Assembly (NCBI GenBank): GCA_026396805.1
Contig: JAPLVZ010000002.1
Location: forward strand, 1 to 57,801
DNA length: 57,801 bases
Direction of reading: 5' to 3'
Origin: Candidatus Falkowbacteria bacterium
Lineage (GTDB): Bacteria > Patescibacteriota > Patescibacteriia > Patescibacteriales > UBA12465
In this document: in pieces, positions 33,536 to 41,264 of the stretch
Position numbering within the stretch: position 1 is the stretch's first letter
Layout of the letters: each line of letters starts with the position of its first letter
Program-made: the position numbers and the translations under genes
The notes under the pieces: model-generated
Told to the model about the DNA's origin: nothing
Seen by the model: only the letters and a program-made list of their open reading frames with translations
The model's database searches: none

Positions 33536-34438
33536 ATGAGTATCACCTCTCGCGGTGTAAAATTTAATCATAAGCCGAAGGGTATTATTCTCCTGGGTTT
33601 TTTCACTTTGGTGGAATATGTTTTAACGACTATCTTCTTTATTTCCCTGTCGGCTAATATTTGGTATCCGGAAAGAGCGAGAGCAGCTCAAGGTGTTTCT
33701 AAGATTCTTTCCTATCAAGGCCGATTGACTGATATTAACAGTAATCCTTTGGGCGGATCCGGGACTAATTATTGTTTCCGTTTTTCTATTTATAATAATT
33801 CGTCCGGCGGGGCTCCGCTTTGGCCGAACGGCACGCCGACGTCCAACACGATTAGCGTGGCTAATGGTATATTTAATGCCGGCATCGGTCAAGCGGATGA
33901 TCTTGGTACTTTTAATTTTTATGAAAATTATGACACCGGCATTTACTTAAATATCGAAGTTAATAATACGCCGGTAACTTGTACCGGCAGTTGGGAGACG
34001 CTTTTGCCGCGACAGAGAATTGATGCGGTCGGTTATGCCCAGGTAGCGAGGGATGTTTACGGCGATTTACTCCGCACGCTTAACAGCGCTACTCCGCCAC
34101 GGGTACAAATCGGCACCGGTTCGGGCGTCAGCACCCCGGTCTATCTTAGTTTGGATGTTAAAAATAGCGGCGAGGATCCAATCGGCGGCAGTGATTGTAG
34201 CAGCATCATCGGCAATGGGCGAATTTGGTATAACTCTACTAATGGCCGGGCTCTAGTTTGTGAAAATAATGTTTTTAAAGCGGTCGGCAACGCCTCGGAA
34301 CTTTCCGGCGTTAAAGCCGAGGGGGCGGCTTCTCTTATCAGTTCCGGGTCCTTGGTCTTAGTGGGCGGCAATAATATTACTTTAAGCCAAGCGACTGGTA
34401 CCGGGGGGGGGGACAATCACAATCTCCGCCGGCAATAA
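33536..34438 (+). CDS. Fibre fragment 1: signal peptide + YQGRL-type N-terminal domain
   Basis: Hydrophobic segment ending ARA-A; SYQGRLTD..NPL, FRFSIY...GG..LW, NGIFN..IG, PRQRI.AVGYA. Confidence 0.8.
   Translation: MSITSRGVKFNHKPKGIILLGFFTLVEYVLTTIFFISLSANIWYPERARAAQGVSKILSYQGRLTDINSNPLGGSGTNYCFRFSIYNNSSGGAPLWPNGTPTSNTISVANGIFNAGIGQADDLGTFNFYENYDTGIYLNIEVNNTPVTCTGSWETLLPRQRIDAVGYAQVARDVYGDLLRTLNSATPPRVQIGTGSGVSTPVYLSLDVKNSGEDPIGGSDCSSIIGNGRIWYNSTNGRALVCENNVFKAVGNASELSGVKAEGAASLISSGSLVLVGGNNITLSQATGTGGGDNHNLRRQ
34403..34412 (+). repeat. G10 homopolymer causing a frameshift (candidate slipped-strand switch)
   Basis: ACC-G10-ACAATC; G9 gives T-G-G-G-T-I-T-I-S-A-G-N-N-G-G-S-G-V-G-G-I-G, in frame with the 34452 ORF. 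Confidence 0.85.
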
Positions 34439-34451
34439 TGGCGGGAGCGGT

Positions 34452-35936
34452 GTGGGCGGAATTGGCGCGGGAACGCAGACGGCCAGCGTTGGCACGGTTA
34501 TTTTTTCTAACGCTAATAATGTTTCTTTCGGTTTGGACGGCCAAATCATTACGGCCAGCTTCGCCCCTAGCGCTAACGCCGGGGTTGGCGGCATCGCGGT
34601 GGGGACGCAGATCGCTTCCAGCGGTACGATCCAATTATTCGGCGGTAATAATGTTACTTTATCTCAAGAAGGGAATGCTATTACTATATTAGGCGGCGCG
34701 TTTAATCAATCTGTTCAGACCCAGAATGTTCATGATGTTGTTTTGGGAGGGAATACCACTGGCACCATGTTCACAATTTCTTCCGGCGTAATGACGTTCG
34801 CCGGCGGTAACAATATTACTCTGTCTCAAAATGGTAACGCGGTTACAATTGTGGGGCCAAGTAATTTTGCTACGAATGATTTTTTGGGAACGGGAGCTAC
34901 TTCCAACTTCTTGGGAACGGGAGCTACTTCCAACTTTTTGGGAACGGGAGCTACTTCCAACTTTTTGGGGACGGGAGCGAGTGGTTCGTTCCTCTTAACT
35001 GGCGCTACTTCTGATTTCCTGGGCATTAATGCCGGCTCTGATTTCCAATATACTTCCGCCAACACTAACTTCTTGGGCACCGCCGCTTCCGGCTCATTCC
35101 TCCAGACGGCCAATAGTTCGCTACTCCAGGTTTCCGGCAACTATCTGACTACGGCGATGGCGTCTAATGCCGGGTCTAATTTCTTAGGGGCGGGAGCTAG
35201 CGCTGACTTCCTCGCATCCAATGCCGGTTCCAACTTCTTCGCCTCTAATGCCGGAACTGGTTTCATGGCTACCGGGGAAAGAGTTAGCTATCTCCAAACT
35301 GCTAATTCAAATCTCTTCCAATTATCAGGTAACTATCAAACAGCTGGCGCCTATCTCACCACCGCGATGGCCTCTGATGCGGGGACTAACTTCCTATCTA
35401 ACAACGCTGGCTCTAATTTCTTAGCTGTTGGTGTTTCAACAAATTTTCTCTCCAATAATGCTGGGTCATTATTCTTGGGTTCCGCTGCTTCTGCTAACTT
35501 CCTATCAAACAATGCTGGAACATTATTCTTAGCTTCTAACGCCGGCACAGGTTTCATGGCCACTGGTGAAAGAGCTAACTATTTTCTCGCTGCTAATAGC
35601 ACTAATCTACAACCGACCGGTGCCTATCTTACCACCGCCATGTTGTCTAATGCCGGGTCTAATTTCTTAGGGGCGGGAGCTAGCGCTGACTTCCTCGCAT
35701 CTAATGCCGGATCCAATTTCCAACCTACCGGAAATTATCTCACTACCGCGATGGCCTCTGATGCGGGATCATTATTCATGGGTGCTAACGCTGGTTCTAA
35801 TTTTCTAGCGGCTAACGCCGGCACAGGTTTCATGGCTACCGGGGAAAGAGTTAGCTATCTCCAAACTGCTAATTCAAATCTCTTCCAATTATCAGGTAAC
35901 TATCAAACAGCTGGCGTCATTATTCATGGGTGCTAA
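34452..35936 (+). CDS. Fibre fragment 2: beta-repeat modules and start of the S/N/A/G/T-rich stalk
   Basis: GGNNITLSQNGNAVTI modules, then NFLGTGATS and NYLTTAMASNAGS repeats. Confidence 0.7.
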   Translation: MGGIGAGTQTASVGTVIFSNANNVSFGLDGQIITASFAPSANAGVGGIAVGTQIASSGTIQLFGGNNVTLSQEGNAITILGGAFNQSVQTQNVHDVVLGGNTTGTMFTISSGVMTFAGGNNITLSQNGNAVTIVGPSNFATNDFLGTGATSNFLGTGATSNFLGTGATSNFLGTGASGSFLLTGATSDFLGINAGSDFQYTSANTNFLGTAASGSFLQTANSSLLQVSGNYLTTAMASNAGSNFLGAGASADFLASNAGSNFFASNAGTGFMATGERVSYLQTANSNLFQLSGNYQTAGAYLTTAMASDAGTNFLSNNAGSNFLAVGVSTNFLSNNAGSLFLGSAASANFLSNNAGTLFLASNAGTGFMATGERANYFLAANSTNLQPTGAYLTTAMLSNAGSNFLGAGASADFLASNAGSNFQPTGNYLTTAMASDAGSLFMGANAGSNFLAANAGTGFMATGERVSYLQTANSNLFQLSGNYQTAGVIIHGC

Positions 35937-38900
35937 CGCTGGTTCTAATTTTCTAGCGGCTAACGCCGGCACAGGTTTCATGGCTACCGGGGAAAGAGCC
36001 AGCTATCTCCAAACTGCTAATTCAAATCTCTTCCAATTATCAGGTAACTATCAAACAGCCGGCAACTATCTGACCACGGCCATGTTATCCAATGCCGGAT
36101 CTCTATTCCAGTCAACCGGAAATTATTTGACGACCGCCATGGCCTCTAATGAGGGATCTAATTTCTTAGCTGTTGGTGCTTCAACAAATTTCCTCTCCAA
36201 TAATGCCGGGTCTTTCTTAGCTGTTGGTGCTTCAACAAATTTCCTCTCCAATAATGCCGGGTCATTATTCTTGGGTTCTAATGCCGGATCTCTATTCCAG
36301 TCAACCGGAAATTATTTGACGACCGCCATGGCCTCTAATGAGGGATCTAATTTCTTAGCTGTTGGTGCTTCAACAAATTTTCTCTCCAATAATGCCGGGT
36401 CATTATTCTTGGGTTCTAATGCCTCAACTAATTATCTCCAAACAGCCAATAGTTCACTATTTCAATACACTTCAGCCAATACTAATTTCCTCGCCTCTAA
36501 GGCACTGGTTTCATGTCTACCGGAGAAAGAGCTAATTATTTAGGTACTGCCTATACTGCCAACTTCCTCTCTAACAATGCTGGGTCTAATTTCTTAGCTG
36601 TTGGTGCTTCAACAAATTTCCTCTCCAATAATGCCGGGTCATTATTCTTGGGTTCTAATGCCGGATCTAATTTCTTAGCATCTAATGCTGGCACTGGTTT
36701 CATGTCTACCGGAGAAAGAGCCAGTTATTTCCTCACGGCCAACTCCTCATTATTCCAAGCCTCCGGAAATTATTTGACGACCGCCATGGCCTCTAATGAG
36801 GGATCTAATTTCTTAGCTATTGGTGCTTCAACAAATTTCCTCTCCAATAATGCTGGGTCTAACTTCCTCGCATCTAATGCCGGGTCTGCTTTCCAATATA
36901 CTTCCGCCAACACTAACTTTCTGGGCACCGCCGCCTCCGGTTCATTCCTCCAGACGGCCAACAGTTCGTTGTTTCAATATACTTCCGCCAATACTAACTT
37001 CCTGGGCGTTGGCGCGGCCGCCTCTTTCCGCTACACCTCCAACGATTCATTATTACAGGCCTCCGGCAACTATCTGACCACGGCGATGGCCTCCAACGCC
37101 GGGTCTCTATTCCAATATACTTCCGCCAACACTAACTTTCTGGGCACTAATGCCGGCACCGGTTTCATGTCGACGGGCGAGAGAGCCAGCTATTTCCTCA
37201 CGGCTAACTCCTCGCTCCTGCAAGCCTCGGGGAATTACCTGACCACGGCGATGTTATCCAACGCTGGTTCTGCTTTCCAATATACATCTGCTAATTCCAA
37301 CTTCTTTGCTGTTGCCAACTCCTCCAACCTGCTCGGCACCGCGGCGAGCGGCTCGTTCCTCCAGACGGCTAATTCCTCTCTCTTCCAATACACTTCGGCC
37401 AACACTAACTTCCTGGGCACTAACGCCGGCACTGGTTTCATGTCGACGGGCGAAAGAGTCAGCTATTTCCTCACCGCCAACTCTTCGCTTCTGCAGGCCT
37501 CGGGCAATTACCTTACCACCGCCATGGCCTCCAACGCCGGGTCTCTATTCCAATATACTTCCGCCAATACTAATTTCCTCGGCACTAACGCCGGCACTGG
37601 TTTCATGAGCACCGGAGAAAGAGTCAGCTATTTCCTCACCGCCAACTCCTCACTGTTACAGGCCTCCGGTAATTATTTGACCACCGCCATGTTATCCAAC
37701 GCTGGTTCCGCTTTCCAATATACTTCCGCCAATACTAACTTCCTCGGCACCGCCGCTTCCGGTTCATTCCTCCAGACCGCCAACAGTTCGCTGTTTCAAT
37801 ATACTAGTGCTAACACTAATTTCCTCGGCACCGCCGCGAGTGGTTTATTCCTCCAGACGGCCAACAGTTCGCTGTTTCAATATACTAGTGCTAACACTAA
37901 TTTCCTGGGTACTAACGCCGGCACTGGCTTCATGAGCACCGGCGAAAGAGCCAGCTATCTCCTTACGGCCAACTCCTCGCTCCTGCAAGCCTCCGGCAAC
38001 TACCTGACCACGGCGATGGCCTCCAACGCCGGGTCTCTATTTCAATATACTTCCGCCAACACTAATTTCCTCGGCACTAATGCCGGAACTGGTTTCATGT
38101 CGACGGGCGAAAGAGTCAGCTATTTTCTCACGGCCAACTCTTCGCTCTTGCAGACCACGGGCAATTATCTCACCACGGCGATGCTGTCTAATGCCGGATC
38201 AGCTTTCCAATATACCTCGGCCAACACTAATTTCATGCAGGGCTGGGCGCTCGCCGGAGCTAACACTGCCGGTACCACCTCCAGCGCGCAGGGAACACAA
38301 TTATATTTTTCCGGCGGAAACATGATGACTATTTCCGGCAATTCCAATTCTCTGGTCTTCTCAGTCAACACCGCCAGCCTATTGGGTACCGGCGCAGCCG
38401 CTTCTTTCCTATATACCTCCGCTTCCTCCAACCTGCTCAATACCTCCGCTTCCTCCAATTTCTTCCTCACGGCCAACTCCTCACTGTTACAGGCCTCGGG
38501 AAATTACCTGACCACGGCGATGTTATCCAACGCTGGTTCCGCTTTCCAATATACTTCCGCCAACACTAATTTTCTCGGCACTAACGCCGGAACTGGTTTC
38601 ATGTCGACGGGCGAAAGAGCCAGCTATTTTCTCACCGCCAACTCCTCGCTCCTGCAGGCCTCCGGAAACTACTTGACGACAGCCATGGCCTCCAATGTCG
38701 GATCTCTATTCCAATACACTTCAGCCAACACTAACTTCCTGGGTACCGCCGCCAGCGGATCATTCCTCCAGACGGCTAACAGTTCGCTGTTTCAATATAC
38801 TAGCGCCAACACTAATTTCCTGGGTTCGGCCGCGAGCGGATCGTTCCTCGGCACCGCGGCCTCTGGCTCGTTCCTCCAGACGGCCAACTCCTCTCTCTTC

Positions 38901-39110
38901 CAATACACATCCGCCAACACTAATTTCCTGGGTTCGGCCGCTTCCTCCAACTTCCTCTCATCTAATGCTAGCTCTAATTACCTCGGTTCCGGAGCAACTT
39001 CCAACTTCCTCTCATCTAATGCTAGCTCTAATTACCTCGGTTCCGGAGCCTCTTCTAATTTTCTCTCATCTAATGCTAGTTCTAATTATTTGGGCACCGG
39101 TAATAGTAGT
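34884..39110 (+). repeat. Internal coding repeat region (~4.2 kb) of shuffled ~24-30-bp units and larger duplicated blocks
   Basis: 27-bp unit three times at 34884-34964; near-exact 148-bp tandem block starting at 35769 and 35917; many copies of FQYTSANTNFLG, NYLTTAM and TGFMSTGER. Confidence 0.92.
35926..36543 (+). CDS. Fibre fragment 3: stalk repeats only
   Basis: Same repeat vocabulary as the flanking fragments; no independent start features. Confidence 0.6.
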   Translation: MGANAGSNFLAANAGTGFMATGERASYLQTANSNLFQLSGNYQTAGNYLTTAMLSNAGSLFQSTGNYLTTAMASNEGSNFLAVGASTNFLSNNAGSFLAVGASTNFLSNNAGSLFLGSNAGSLFQSTGNYLTTAMASNEGSNFLAVGASTNFLSNNAGSLFLGSNASTNYLQTANSSLFQYTSANTNFLASKALVSCLPEKELII

Positions 39111-40205
39111 AACATCGTTCGTAATTTTACAATTGGCGGTAACTCCACTAGCGTTGGCGGAGGATATGTTGCAATCAGTAGCGGTACAATGTTGTTAGCC
39201 GGTGGCGCTAATATTACTTTGTCGCAGAATGGCCAATCAATTACCATACTCGGCGGCGCCGGTGGCGGTGGTTTCGCGATGTCGCTCAGTGGCAATTCTA
39301 CCAGTAATGGTGGCGGCTATTCCTTAATTACTAATGGCACGATGTATTTAGCCGGCGGTAACGGTATCACCCTTTCTCAAAACGGACAATCAATAACAAT
39401 TTCCGCGGCCAATAACCTTAATGGTATCGTAATTGGCGGCAACACCGCCGGTGTGACCGCTTCAATATCTTCCGGTTACATGACTTTAGCGGGCGGCGAT
39501 AACATCACCATATCTCAGAACGGCAACGCGCTGACCATTTCCGGTGCCGCTGCGGCTGGCGGCGGAGCGACTTTATCGAATTTTCGCCCAATGGAAAATA
39601 TCTTCTCTTCAATTGGTACTATCCCACAGGGGTCGTGCTCGATAAGGCCGGTTTATATACCGTTCAATGTAACGGGAAGCGTCATGAAATTTGCTGTTTC
39701 TAACAACGTCGGTACTGTCGCAAATAATTCTTCAGCCGGCCAAAATATTAGTATGAATGTGGCAATCTATTCTTATAATAATTCCAGCCTTTCGCTAATC
39801 ACCTCCGGAAGCACTTATCAGTATGCTTCTTATTCCAGCAACGTCACCGGGTCCATGACCGGCATGAAGCAACTTACCGTTCCCATCGATATTAATATCG
39901 CGCCGGGCGAGTATTGGATAGGGTTGGCAGTTTCATGGGCCACGAGCGGGCAGACATCGCTCGGCCAATCAAAGACTCTTTACGGGGATCCTCTGATGCC
40001 TACCGCAGCTCAAGCTAATAACATTGGTAATATAGGCAATGGGACGGCCACGATCAGGCATGCTTATCCGTTTCTTGGGGTTTACACCGCCGGGATATCC
40101 GCCTGCCCCGTGTCCATCAGCTCCGGACAAATTAATGCCACCTCTGCATCCAATCCGGTAAGGGCTAATTTCTGGTTTGAAATGCGGAGCAATCAGCCGT
40201 GGTAA
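36513..40205 (+). CDS. Fibre fragment 4: stalk repeats, beta-modules and C-terminal tip domain
   Basis: 1230 aa; repeats to ~39110, three LAGG.NIT.SQNG..I/LTI modules, then a ~200-aa non-repetitive beta-rich domain (IAPGEYWIGL). Confidence 0.8.
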   Translation: MSTGERANYLGTAYTANFLSNNAGSNFLAVGASTNFLSNNAGSLFLGSNAGSNFLASNAGTGFMSTGERASYFLTANSSLFQASGNYLTTAMASNEGSNFLAIGASTNFLSNNAGSNFLASNAGSAFQYTSANTNFLGTAASGSFLQTANSSLFQYTSANTNFLGVGAAASFRYTSNDSLLQASGNYLTTAMASNAGSLFQYTSANTNFLGTNAGTGFMSTGERASYFLTANSSLLQASGNYLTTAMLSNAGSAFQYTSANSNFFAVANSSNLLGTAASGSFLQTANSSLFQYTSANTNFLGTNAGTGFMSTGERVSYFLTANSSLLQASGNYLTTAMASNAGSLFQYTSANTNFLGTNAGTGFMSTGERVSYFLTANSSLLQASGNYLTTAMLSNAGSAFQYTSANTNFLGTAASGSFLQTANSSLFQYTSANTNFLGTAASGLFLQTANSSLFQYTSANTNFLGTNAGTGFMSTGERASYLLTANSSLLQASGNYLTTAMASNAGSLFQYTSANTNFLGTNAGTGFMSTGERVSYFLTANSSLLQTTGNYLTTAMLSNAGSAFQYTSANTNFMQGWALAGANTAGTTSSAQGTQLYFSGGNMMTISGNSNSLVFSVNTASLLGTGAAASFLYTSASSNLLNTSASSNFFLTANSSLLQASGNYLTTAMLSNAGSAFQYTSANTNFLGTNAGTGFMSTGERASYFLTANSSLLQASGNYLTTAMASNVGSLFQYTSANTNFLGTAASGSFLQTANSSLFQYTSANTNFLGSAASGSFLGTAASGSFLQTANSSLFQYTSANTNFLGSAASSNFLSSNASSNYLGSGATSNFLSSNASSNYLGSGASSNFLSSNASSNYLGTGNSSNIVRNFTIGGNSTSVGGGYVAISSGTMLLAGGANITLSQNGQSITILGGAGGGGFAMSLSGNSTSNGGGYSLITNGTMYLAGGNGITLSQNGQSITISAANNLNGIVIGGNTAGVTASISSGYMTLAGGDNITISQNGNALTISGAAAAGGGATLSNFRPMENIFSSIGTIPQGSCSIRPVYIPFNVTGSVMKFAVSNNVGTVANNSSAGQNISMNVAIYSYNNSSLSLITSGSTYQYASYSSNVTGSMTGMKQLTVPIDINIAPGEYWIGLAVSWATSGQTSLGQSKTLYGDPLMPTAAQANNIGNIGNGTATIRHAYPFLGVYTAGISACPVSISSGQINATSASNPVRANFWFEMRSNQPW

Positions 40206-40250: not shown

Positions 40251-41264
40251 ATGATCAAACGATTCATAATCTTCATAGTCAGCGGGGTCATTATTTTAGG
40301 GATCGGCATAAGCATCGGTTATTATCGGGCGCATTTTTTGTTATCTACAATGTCTGCCGTTAATACCCAGCCTGCTTATACCGTCGCTCCTGCCATTTTT
40401 AATAGCAATGACGATGCGTTTCCGTTCATAAATCCTACGGTTACCTCAAATTTGGGCAAACATTTTATCATTAACTTTAAGCCGCTCAAAGAACAAATGA
40501 CCGCTATCCAGAAAAAATACCCTCAACATACCTATATTTACTTTTCATATCTTAATAATTCTTCCTGGGTGGGCATAAACGAACGCGATTTATTCGTGTC
40601 GGCCAGTACCATTAAAGTTCCTTTAACCATGGCCGTATTAAAGGCCGAGGAGGATAATAAATTGAAATTGGCAGACAAATATGCGCTGGAAGAATTGGAT
40701 CTGGATGGTAATTTCGGAGAATTGTATCAAGTCGGATCTGATAAAGAATTATCGGTTGAAGAATTAATAAAGATCATGTTGGAGAAGTCGGATAATACGG
40801 CGATGAGAGCCATCATCAATATTTTAAATAAGATCGGAATCAATGATCCTTTTGTCAACGTTTATGAGGCAATGGGATGGGATACCAGCGATACCGACTT
40901 AATACCCGAAATTGGAAAGGCGCCAAATTATCAAGCGATCAATCTCAAAACTTTGTCCAATATGTTCATAGCTCTTTATGATTCAAAGTATATCAATACA
41001 GAAAATTCCAATAGGGTTCTTGAATACTTGGCCAATACGCCATTCAACGATAAAATAGTCGCCGGCGTGCCCAAGGACATACTAGTCGCGCACAAGATCG
41101 GAATTTCTGTGACGGATAATACCTTTTCCGATTGCGGAATCGTTTACGCGCCTAACCGGAATTATATTTTATGCTTGGGTTCAAGCGGCGCTGACGAAGC
41201 GAACGCCGACAAATTCATGGCTGAAATCTCGAAAGTCGTGTATCAGTTTGTGATAAATAACTAG
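40251..41264 (+). CDS. Membrane-anchored serine hydrolase, class A beta-lactamase/PBP-like fold
   Basis: N-terminal TM; SxxK (SASTIK), SDN (KSDNTA), HKIG in place of KTG, DCGIVY. Confidence 0.85.
   Translation: MIKRFIIFIVSGVIILGIGISIGYYRAHFLLSTMSAVNTQPAYTVAPAIFNSNDDAFPFINPTVTSNLGKHFIINFKPLKEQMTAIQKKYPQHTYIYFSYLNNSSWVGINERDLFVSASTIKVPLTMAVLKAEEDNKLKLADKYALEELDLDGNFGELYQVGSDKELSVEELIKIMLEKSDNTAMRAIINILNKIGINDPFVNVYEAMGWDTSDTDLIPEIGKAPNYQAINLKTLSNMFIALYDSKYINTENSNRVLEYLANTPFNDKIVAGVPKDILVAHKIGISVTDNTFSDCGIVYAPNRNYILCLGSSGADEANADKFMAEISKVVYQFVINN

Follow-up and report, generated by a model that had tools for sequence, protein, structure and literature searches.

This study concerns a giant fibre gene of a Candidatus Falkowbacteria bacterium (assembly GCA_026396805.1), which lies in the 57,801-nucleotide (nt) stretch of contig JAPLVZ010000002.1 that we analysed, here called the window. 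About 290 codons into this gene, a run of ten guanines (G10) throws the reading frame out and cuts the product short. With moderate confidence, we read this as a recent slippage frameshift in a gene in early decay rather than as a maintained ON/OFF switch. In the model that we propose, a lineage-specific G9 run encoding Gly-Gly-Gly would have been the in-frame state of the genome's single giant surface-fibre gene. Replication slippage would then have added one G, giving G10, shifting the frame and ending translation 8 codons on. Because two further candidate frame-breaking lesions lie downstream, the gene is most likely switched off for good. Without mismatch repair the tract would still slip often and G9 revertants would arise, and with the other lesions kept these would make a 799-residue fibre that lacks its tip.

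The G10 tract and its in-frame length

The genome (G000; 17 contigs, 827,600 bases, 90.1% complete) carries the tract (locus L095) at positions 34403 to 34412 of the plus strand. These positions correspond to codons 290 to 292 of the first open reading frame (ORF1; 33536 to 34438, 300 residues), 26 nt ahead of its stop codon. The ORF1 product ends in ...NITLSQATGTGGGDNHNLRRQ, or in a longer reading ...GGNNITLSQATGTGGGDNHNLRRQ. How does the gene read when the length of the tract is changed? Removal of one G in silico gives the reading GGGTITISAGNNGG..., which stays open as far as 35936. Three GGG glycine codons then join ORF1 to the next open reading frame (ORF2) in a product of 799 residues that reads ...GTGGGTITISAG... 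across the junction. The stop-free stretch through the tract amounts to 799 codons with G9, 508 with G10 and 512 with G11. In the G9 frame, the module GGNN[IV]TLSQ-x-[AT][IV]TI occurs twice more downstream.

The tract, a homopolymer inside a reading frame and of a length that should be mutable (at least about 8 G/C), stands out from the rest of the genome. It is the sole G/C run longer than 7 in the window, and a count over all 17 contigs revealed 278 runs of 5, 41 of 6, 9 of 7, none of 8 or 9, and this one of 10. GGG is the rarest glycine codon (12.6% of 16,405 glycine codons in 630 ORFs of at least 150 residues), and GGC GGC GGC is the commonest way to encode three glycines in a row (54 of 163 windows). 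By chance, 0.33 all-GGG triplets are expected per genome, and Markov simulations (40 each at orders 3 and 5) gave about 0.25 runs of 9 and 0.05 to 0.075 runs of 10 or more. Since these expectations are not negligible, a G9 run that arose by chance and then slipped is not far-fetched.

Much of this had been anticipated in a preliminary description of this DNA. It had singled out the tract as the window's only long G run (which proves to be the only run of at least 8 in the whole genome), had placed the stop of the G10 frame at 34438, as the ORF1 translation confirms, and had called three GGG codons atypical, in agreement with the codon counts. It had also proposed that G9 or G12 restores the reading, completes the protein's own NITLSQ module and fuses the fibre ORF to the next one. 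The two downstream copies of the module and the 799-residue product agree with this proposal, and the orthologs described below encode exactly that reading with the same number of residues.

The same description had named a homopolymer sequencing error as the main alternative, in which case the true sequence would be G9 and the gene would be intact at this site. Homopolymers are indeed error-prone, and other assemblies of the genus have poly-G/C artefacts at the ends of contigs (C16 at L098, C52 at L107, G10 at L117). To judge the tract we turned to independent assemblies. Eleven public runs from three studies, freshwater where labelled, contain the stretch, and all 14 listed runs were available as contigs. 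Comparison of four runs revealed three contigs that span 33800 to 34800 (X1 and X2 from study P1, X6 from study P2; word depths 16.8, 31.4 and 9.2, respectively), and each of them carries G10 with no differences and no gaps. One of these contigs may be the window's own source; two studies are represented. The tract is internal and has unique flanks, and the 300-residue product cut off at the tract has an exact record on two contigs in the protein collection. Because G10 is found in three of three separately assembled run contigs from two studies and its product on two contigs, an error is unlikely as the source of G10, and we regard a true G9 in this genome as highly improbable. In every sample examined, G10 is the consensus allele.

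No other tract length appeared in the three spanning contigs, and no form at least 90% identical with another tract length was found among database proteins of 165 to 2000 residues. An exact-pattern scan of metagenome contigs (both flanks, with 6 to 14 bases between them) gave no matches and hence no alleles of the population. In the fourth run (X9, study P3, depth 3 to 8), no contig crosses the tract: one of 194 nt stops at 34411, with the ninth G as its last base, and coverage resumes in another contig at 34466. This is precisely where a branch between G9 and G10 would interrupt a contig in a k=31 graph; the run also has a 343-nt hole in the same 1-kb stretch, and the contig end at the ninth G therefore supports no conclusion.

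We then asked about related loci. A search with the N-terminal 292 residues was negative in the first 36 genomes of the genus and yielded a single ortholog among the 68 other genomes of the genus (locus L010 of genome G077, 77% amino acid identity). Metagenome contigs contributed L011 and L012, which share 82% identity with the query and do not differ from one another at the site, and a related-locus search that returned 80 loci gave 82% as the closest identity. In all three orthologous loci, which represent two lineages, a single ORF reads through the site with the residue count of the window's G9 form:

L010: ATT ACT GGC GCA GCG GGT GGA ACA (ITGAAGG-T), reading ...SQITGAAGGTIIIS...
L011 and L012: GCG ACT AAT GCT AAT GGC GGA ACA (ATNANGG-T), reading ...SQATNANGGTITIS...
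Window: GCG ACT GGT ACC GGG GGG GGG (G) ACA, protein SQATGTGGG(+1)TITIS

The orthologs encode the site with mixed Gly, Ala and Asn codons (GGC GCA GCG GGT GGA in L010, AAT GCT AAT GGC GGA in L011 and L012), and none of the three contains a G/C run of 7 or more. The tract is therefore absent from three of three orthologous loci. Because these loci read through without a poly-G, G9 is the in-frame state and the tract is lineage specific. Such mixed codons are also the result that the preliminary description, which had proposed looking for a conserved poly-G in orthologs, had named as refuting a contingency locus. These data make a +1 slip in a G9 tract a well-supported mechanism for the loss of the frame.

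Selection on either side of the tract was estimated from the ratio of nonsynonymous to synonymous substitution rates (dN/dS) over 292 upstream and 165 downstream codons. The upstream and downstream values were 0.10 and 0.10 against L012 and 0.14 and 0.08 against L010, with dS greater than 1 in both comparisons. Because dN/dS is about 0.1 on both sides, the part downstream of the tract was under purifying selection until recently. Together with 1230 stop-free codons in the last piece of the gene, these ratios suggest that the inactivation is recent.

One fibre gene in four pieces

The preliminary description had treated the fibre gene as two ORFs. The fusion stands, and the extent does not, since the gene appears to continue through four pieces, with two further frame lesions. 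The features, all on the plus strand, are as follows:

33536 to 40205: whole ancestral gene, about 2,220 codons, after orf154 and before a beta-lactamase-family gene and then orf239
33536 to 34438: piece 1, 300 residues, with a signal or anchor helix, a conserved N-domain (sub-threshold Bdello_MAT_N) and the first NITLSQ module; it ends in an 8-residue out-of-frame tail and TAA
34403 to 34412: G10 homopolymer, one G above the in-frame length; G10 in all three spanning run contigs
34404 to 35936: piece 2, frame 0, with NITLSQ modules and then NFLxxxAGS-type repeats; TAA at 35934 to 35936, just past lesion 2
35769 to 36064: lesion 2 (candidate), two near-identical copies with a 148-nt period (148 = 1 mod 3), an out-of-phase duplication
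35917 to 36543: piece 3, frame 1, with more NFL/GNYLTTAMAS repeats; TAG after lesion 3; its ORF runs from 35926 to 36543
36490 to 36506: lesion 3 (candidate), near 36495, TCTAA-GGCACTGGTTTCATG, a 4-nt deletion that takes frame 1 to frame 0
36513 to 40205: piece 4, 1230 residues from the first ATG, with a long NFL run, three NITLSQ modules and the C-domain

Across the four pieces the frame runs 2, 0, 1, 0, and the three lesions are of different kinds. Piece 2 is 60% identical to residues 291 to 748 of the L012 ortholog, with a dN/dS of 0.08 to 0.10 over its first 165 codons. At lesion 2, the junction ...CAAACAGCTGGCG|TCATTATTCATGGG... lies at 35916/35917, where the reading of the repeats passes from frame 0 to frame 1; the spacing of repeat family D7 is 148 nt, in line with the duplication. 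The counterpart of lesion 3 in legible copies of the unit is TCTAATGCYGGCACNGGTTTCATG, that is, TCTAATGCYGGCAC.GGTTTCATG (11 GGTTTCATG-containing copies compared), and the spacing in repeat families D2 and D6 is 239 nt. Both junctions are unique sequences of a kind that an assembler does not normally invent, and lesions 2 and 3 are for this reason probably real. With both of them present, a G9 allele alone gives 799 residues, without the distal shaft repeats and the C-terminal domain, or tip. None of pieces 2 to 4 has a signal peptide of its own.

Synteny with an ortholog agrees with a single ancestral gene. In L012, homologues of orf154 and orf239 flank one uninterrupted fibre ORF of 1108 residues, ordered as N-domain, three NITLSQ modules, NFL repeats, three NITLSQ modules and C-domain. 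A pseudogene is recognised by disabling lesions where close relatives keep the gene intact, and the window's gene shows this pattern, with lesions 2 and 3 as candidates. The neighbourhood differs in one respect. A gene of class-A beta-lactamase type (PF13354, E = 5e-37) occupies 40251 to 41264 of the window, between the fibre gene and orf239, and in L012 the orf239 homologue follows the fibre gene directly, with no such gene interposed.

Can the breaks be read through in some other way? A code with TGA reassigned was ruled out as a rescue, since the stops that end pieces 1, 2 and 3 are TAA, TAA and TAG. Read-through by a four-letter code word (ACCG, GTAC, TACC or GGTA) was likewise rejected, as each word either recurs in the read frame or is absent at the break and none produced one clean shift. 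Recoding at the tract itself would take the form of RNA polymerase slippage on the C10 template, or of a +1 slip of tRNA-Gly on GGG_G, and would yield the stub together with a minority of long fibre. After slipping by one base, a run of ten identical bases can pair again without a mismatch, the frame beyond the tract stays intact over 507 codons, and frameshifted genes in reduced endosymbiont genomes are rescued by transcriptional slippage at long homopolymers. Documented bacterial transcriptional slippage, however, occurs mostly at A/T runs, the zero-frame codon after the tract is GAC, which is neither a stop nor an evident hungry codon, and the product would in any case be cut short at the candidate lesions 2 and 3. 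None of the runs that hold the locus is recorded as RNA. We consider recoding very unlikely.

What kind of protein does the gene encode? None of the four pieces had a Pfam match at E values up to 0.01. At E values up to 1, Pfam matches of the L012 ortholog, the C-terminal 301 residues of piece 4 and the database relative P0007 were at chance level, as were the matches in a PDB sequence search with the L012 ortholog. The NITLSQ and NFL shaft units have no Pfam or NCBIfam model. The NCBIfam model NF053851 (Bdello_MAT_N) matched residues 50 to 123 of the window protein at E = 7e-5 with 22.7 bits, where the cut-off is 60. The same model matched 22 of 28 aligned relatives (alignment A1) at E values up to 0.01, with 4.3e-8 as the best. 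The score of the window protein stays below the NCBI cut-off for family membership, and the matches indicate distant relatedness.

The layout of the protein consists of a hydrophobic helix with an AxA site, a domain with the invariant residues G-R-L...G-T-N-Y-C-F-R-F, a long shaft and a C-terminus that has diverged (about 34% identical to L012, against 82% at the N-terminus). The C-terminal domain of piece 4 has about 230 residues, and a model of the C-terminal 239 residues was all-beta and of low confidence (mean predicted local distance difference test score 60.6, predicted template modelling score 0.59). Its best matches in the PDB were weak (E = 7.8e-4, TM scores of 0.39 to 0.45) and were to phage capsid, tail-tip and tumour necrosis factor (TNF)-like jelly rolls, a hint that the modelled domain may resemble a jelly roll or TNF-like fold. 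Hundreds of relatives of about 450 to more than 1,800 residues occur in assemblies labelled Patescibacteria, and the genome itself has one match, its only gene of this family. We use fibre as a fair name for the protein, which by its layout would be displayed on the surface and may serve in host attachment. Two database relatives, P0124 and P0134, have arginine/proline-rich tails unlike the rest of the family, which suggests that frameshifts or chimeric contigs may be common in assemblies of these genes. For annotation, a gene-caller yields four misleading "hypothetical proteins" from what appears to be one gene.

Decay, switching and poly-G runs across the genus

The genome was also searched for mismatch repair. 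Neither PF00488 (MutS_V) nor PF01119 (DNA_mis_repair, MutL) had a match in the 90.1%-complete, 828-kb genome; as controls, the same models matched 11 of 14 reference genomes. Mismatch repair thus appears to be weak or absent here, as would be expected of a genome with contingency loci. In the absence of any MutS or MutL match, one would expect a hypermutable tract. Campylobacter is likewise described as having neither protein, and by analogy the G10 run would change length at a high rate, so that minority G9 and G11 alleles are to be expected whatever the evolutionary status of the tract.

On the basis of these results, we asked whether the tract could be a contingency locus, as the preliminary description had proposed. 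In that case the poly-G would have evolved in a host-attachment fibre gene, with G9 as ON and G10 or G11 as OFF, and the sampled populations would be mostly OFF. Several results are in favour. The tract is a coding one, inside the single gene that this genome has of a putative surface-fibre family, and G9 gives exactly the orthologous reading. The three GGG codons are unusual for this genome, MutS and MutL were not matched, and the downstream frame is still clean, with dN/dS of about 0.1. In-frame G9 runs are also present in a GT2 glycosyltransferase, a GT-D glycosyltransferase and an S-adenosylmethionine (SAM)-dependent methyltransferase gene of three other species of the genus. Against these stand the mixed codons and missing tract in three of three orthologous loci and the lack of a length variant in the three spanning contigs and the protein database. 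Instead of several over-represented G/C tracts, the genome has a single run of at least 8 in 827,600 bases, and chance would give 0.33 all-GGG triplets and about 0.25 runs of 9 per genome. The two candidate downstream lesions would leave the ON allele without a tip. An ortholog in 1 of 68 other genomes of the genus also implies that the gene is dispensable in the clade. We consequently regard a contingency locus as rather unlikely. The evidence points to a more ordinary case: a dispensable fibre gene that evolves fast and is at an early point of decay, one of its lesions being a slip in a homopolymer.

Several considerations weigh against decay. True contingency loci often show OFF as their consensus state. 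The tract lies in a presumed surface-fibre gene, a class with known switches, and the three in-frame coding G9 tracts tested elsewhere in the genus fall in two glycosyltransferases and a methyltransferase. Contigs conceal minority alleles, which makes the lack of G9 and G11 weak evidence, and to reach G9 from either ortholog takes at least three substitutions toward G. Both downstream lesions (2 and 3) fall where the gene is most repetitive, with stretches of 79 to 131 nt at 97 to 100% identity, and the X1, X2 and X6 contigs (Logan) all end near 34940, at the onset of the repeats. The exact pieces 2, 3 and 4 are absent from the protein collection, which speaks neither for nor against these lesions. 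If lesions 2 and 3 were misassembled, G10 would be the only break left, and reversion to G9 would restore full function, as in a switch. That the two lesions are artefacts of repeat assembly and that G9/G10 is a working switch of the genome's only MAT-like fibre seems to us improbable.

Such a switch would be new, as the literature that we searched reports no phase variation for these bacteria. The one source that touched both subjects treats phase variation in its discussion and references by comparison with other systems, and not as shown in Saccharibacteria (PMC11032452). If the switch is real, the candidate phyla radiation would have its first described contingency locus, in an ultra-small cell without mismatch repair, and the in-frame G9 tracts of sister species, in genes for glycosyltransferases and a methyltransferase, would be a hint of a genus-wide strategy. 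Uncultured episymbionts with minimal genomes would then vary their attachment apparatus stochastically, which bears on host change or escape.

To place the tract among other homopolymers, we surveyed the genus. G/C runs of at least 9 occur in 29 of 69 genomes, and among 30 loci with G/C runs that we inspected, the window's tract alone splits a long reading frame. The in-frame G9 runs, each encoding Gly-Gly-Gly, lie at codon 229 of 342 of the GT2 glycosyltransferase (L101, genome G075), codon 47 of 265 of the GT-D glycosyltransferase (L112, G015) and codon 72 of 314 of the SAM-dependent methyltransferase (L116, G090). Both gene classes phase-vary through poly-G in Campylobacter, and by analogy the three tracts are candidate contingency loci. 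About ten G9 or C9 runs lie 0 to 70 nt past a stop codon, often of a gene of about 460 to 500 residues (L091, L093, L094, L096, L097, L100, L102, L103, L113 and L118); these may be variable-region ends of diversity-generating retroelements (DGRs) or parts of terminators. Four inspected runs (L098, L107, L115 and L117) and a further one at G009:C33:1-13 are poly-G/C stretches of 10 to 52 bases at contig ends, at most 60 nt from the end, and are probably artefacts of sequencing chemistry.

A further group of runs is linked to reverse transcriptase (RT) genes. In six genomes (L106, L108, L110, L111, L119 and L120), a G9 to G15 run at about position 1501 of each locus accompanies an RT of about 340 residues. 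At L108, L110 and L111 the run lies 13 to 19 nt before the RT start codon, and at L106, L119 and L120 it falls within the opening codons of the longest RT frame. The sequence upstream of the RT genes is conserved in several of the six loci. The best NCBIfam match of one of these RTs is to group II intron RT/maturase, at 140 bits and below the cut-off of 300. The G run at these RT genes might represent the G-rich terminus of a template repeat of a DGR; a 5' leader of variable length is another possibility. The window's own genome has GGAGGGCGGAG in place of the G run at its RT (contig C8). About 450 nt upstream of that RT domain (L121), a scaffold gap of 13 N has the same 17 nt (TTAAAATAGCCATTG...) on both sides, which suggests a short, incompletely assembled repeat beside the RT cassette.

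Could the window's tract be the G-rich end of a DGR variable region? The association of G runs with RT genes in 6 of 69 genomes, the presence of one RT in this genome and the position of the tract 26 nt ahead of the ORF1 stop codon would fit. The 250 nt before the tract, however, occur only once in the 90.1%-complete genome, whether searched by blastn (word size 7) or with an ungapped, adenine-tolerant scan. The single RT lies on a different contig and has no homopolymer upstream, and the orthologs reveal ORF1 as the front part of a longer gene. With no template copy, an RT elsewhere and an ORF1 that is part of a longer gene, we take the DGR reading as effectively refuted, its remaining probability being negligible.

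Comparison with known systems

The nearest model for a switch is Campylobacter jejuni, along with Helicobacter, Neisseria and Haemophilus. As in these bacteria, an intragenic G run of about 8 to 11 lies in a putative surface-structure gene and the OFF state is one base from ON; as in C. jejuni, MutS and MutL are not detectable. In contrast to the tens of tracts found there, this genome has a single one. Tracts are kept among strains in those species and vary in length within populations, whereas the one described here is missing in three of three orthologous loci and was seen in one length, and the fibre gene carries two other candidate lesions. Background papers on such loci are PMC3025981, PMC8437040 and PMC5084427.

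A second likeness is to the phages of Campylobacter (Fletchervirus), whose receptor-binding protein genes carry hypermutable poly-G tracts, as referred to in PMC11032452. In both cases a poly-G frameshift falls in a fibre-type host-recognition protein, putatively so here, of an entity that attaches to another cell. The phages differ in having several tracts and measured variation.

In architecture, the protein is most reminiscent of the mosaic adhesive trimer (MAT) fibres of Bdellovibrio bacteriovorus, which presumably lie on the cell surface, where they would display C-terminal tips that vary; the main text of the paper that describes them does not mention Patescibacteria (PMC10769870). Both have a signal peptide directly before a conserved beta-rich N-domain, a long shaft of repeats and a C-terminal domain that diverges, and both predators and episymbionts must recognise another bacterium. 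The window protein differs in its score of 22.7 bits against a cut-off of 60 and in shaft repeats that no model describes, and its trimeric state and surface location are predictions. As a by-product of this work, a fibre family widespread in Patescibacteria appears to share a distant N-domain with the prey-recognition fibres of Bdellovibrio.

Early decay, the reading that we prefer, has its counterpart in the frameshift pseudogenes of reduced symbionts. Like those, the fibre gene lies in a small genome (828 kb) in which no mismatch repair was found, combines a homopolymer break with small lesions and has intact orthologs. Pseudogenes of reduced symbionts usually break at poly-A/T in AT-rich genomes, whereas the run here is of G, and the gene, with no in-frame stops, would represent a very early stage of the same process.

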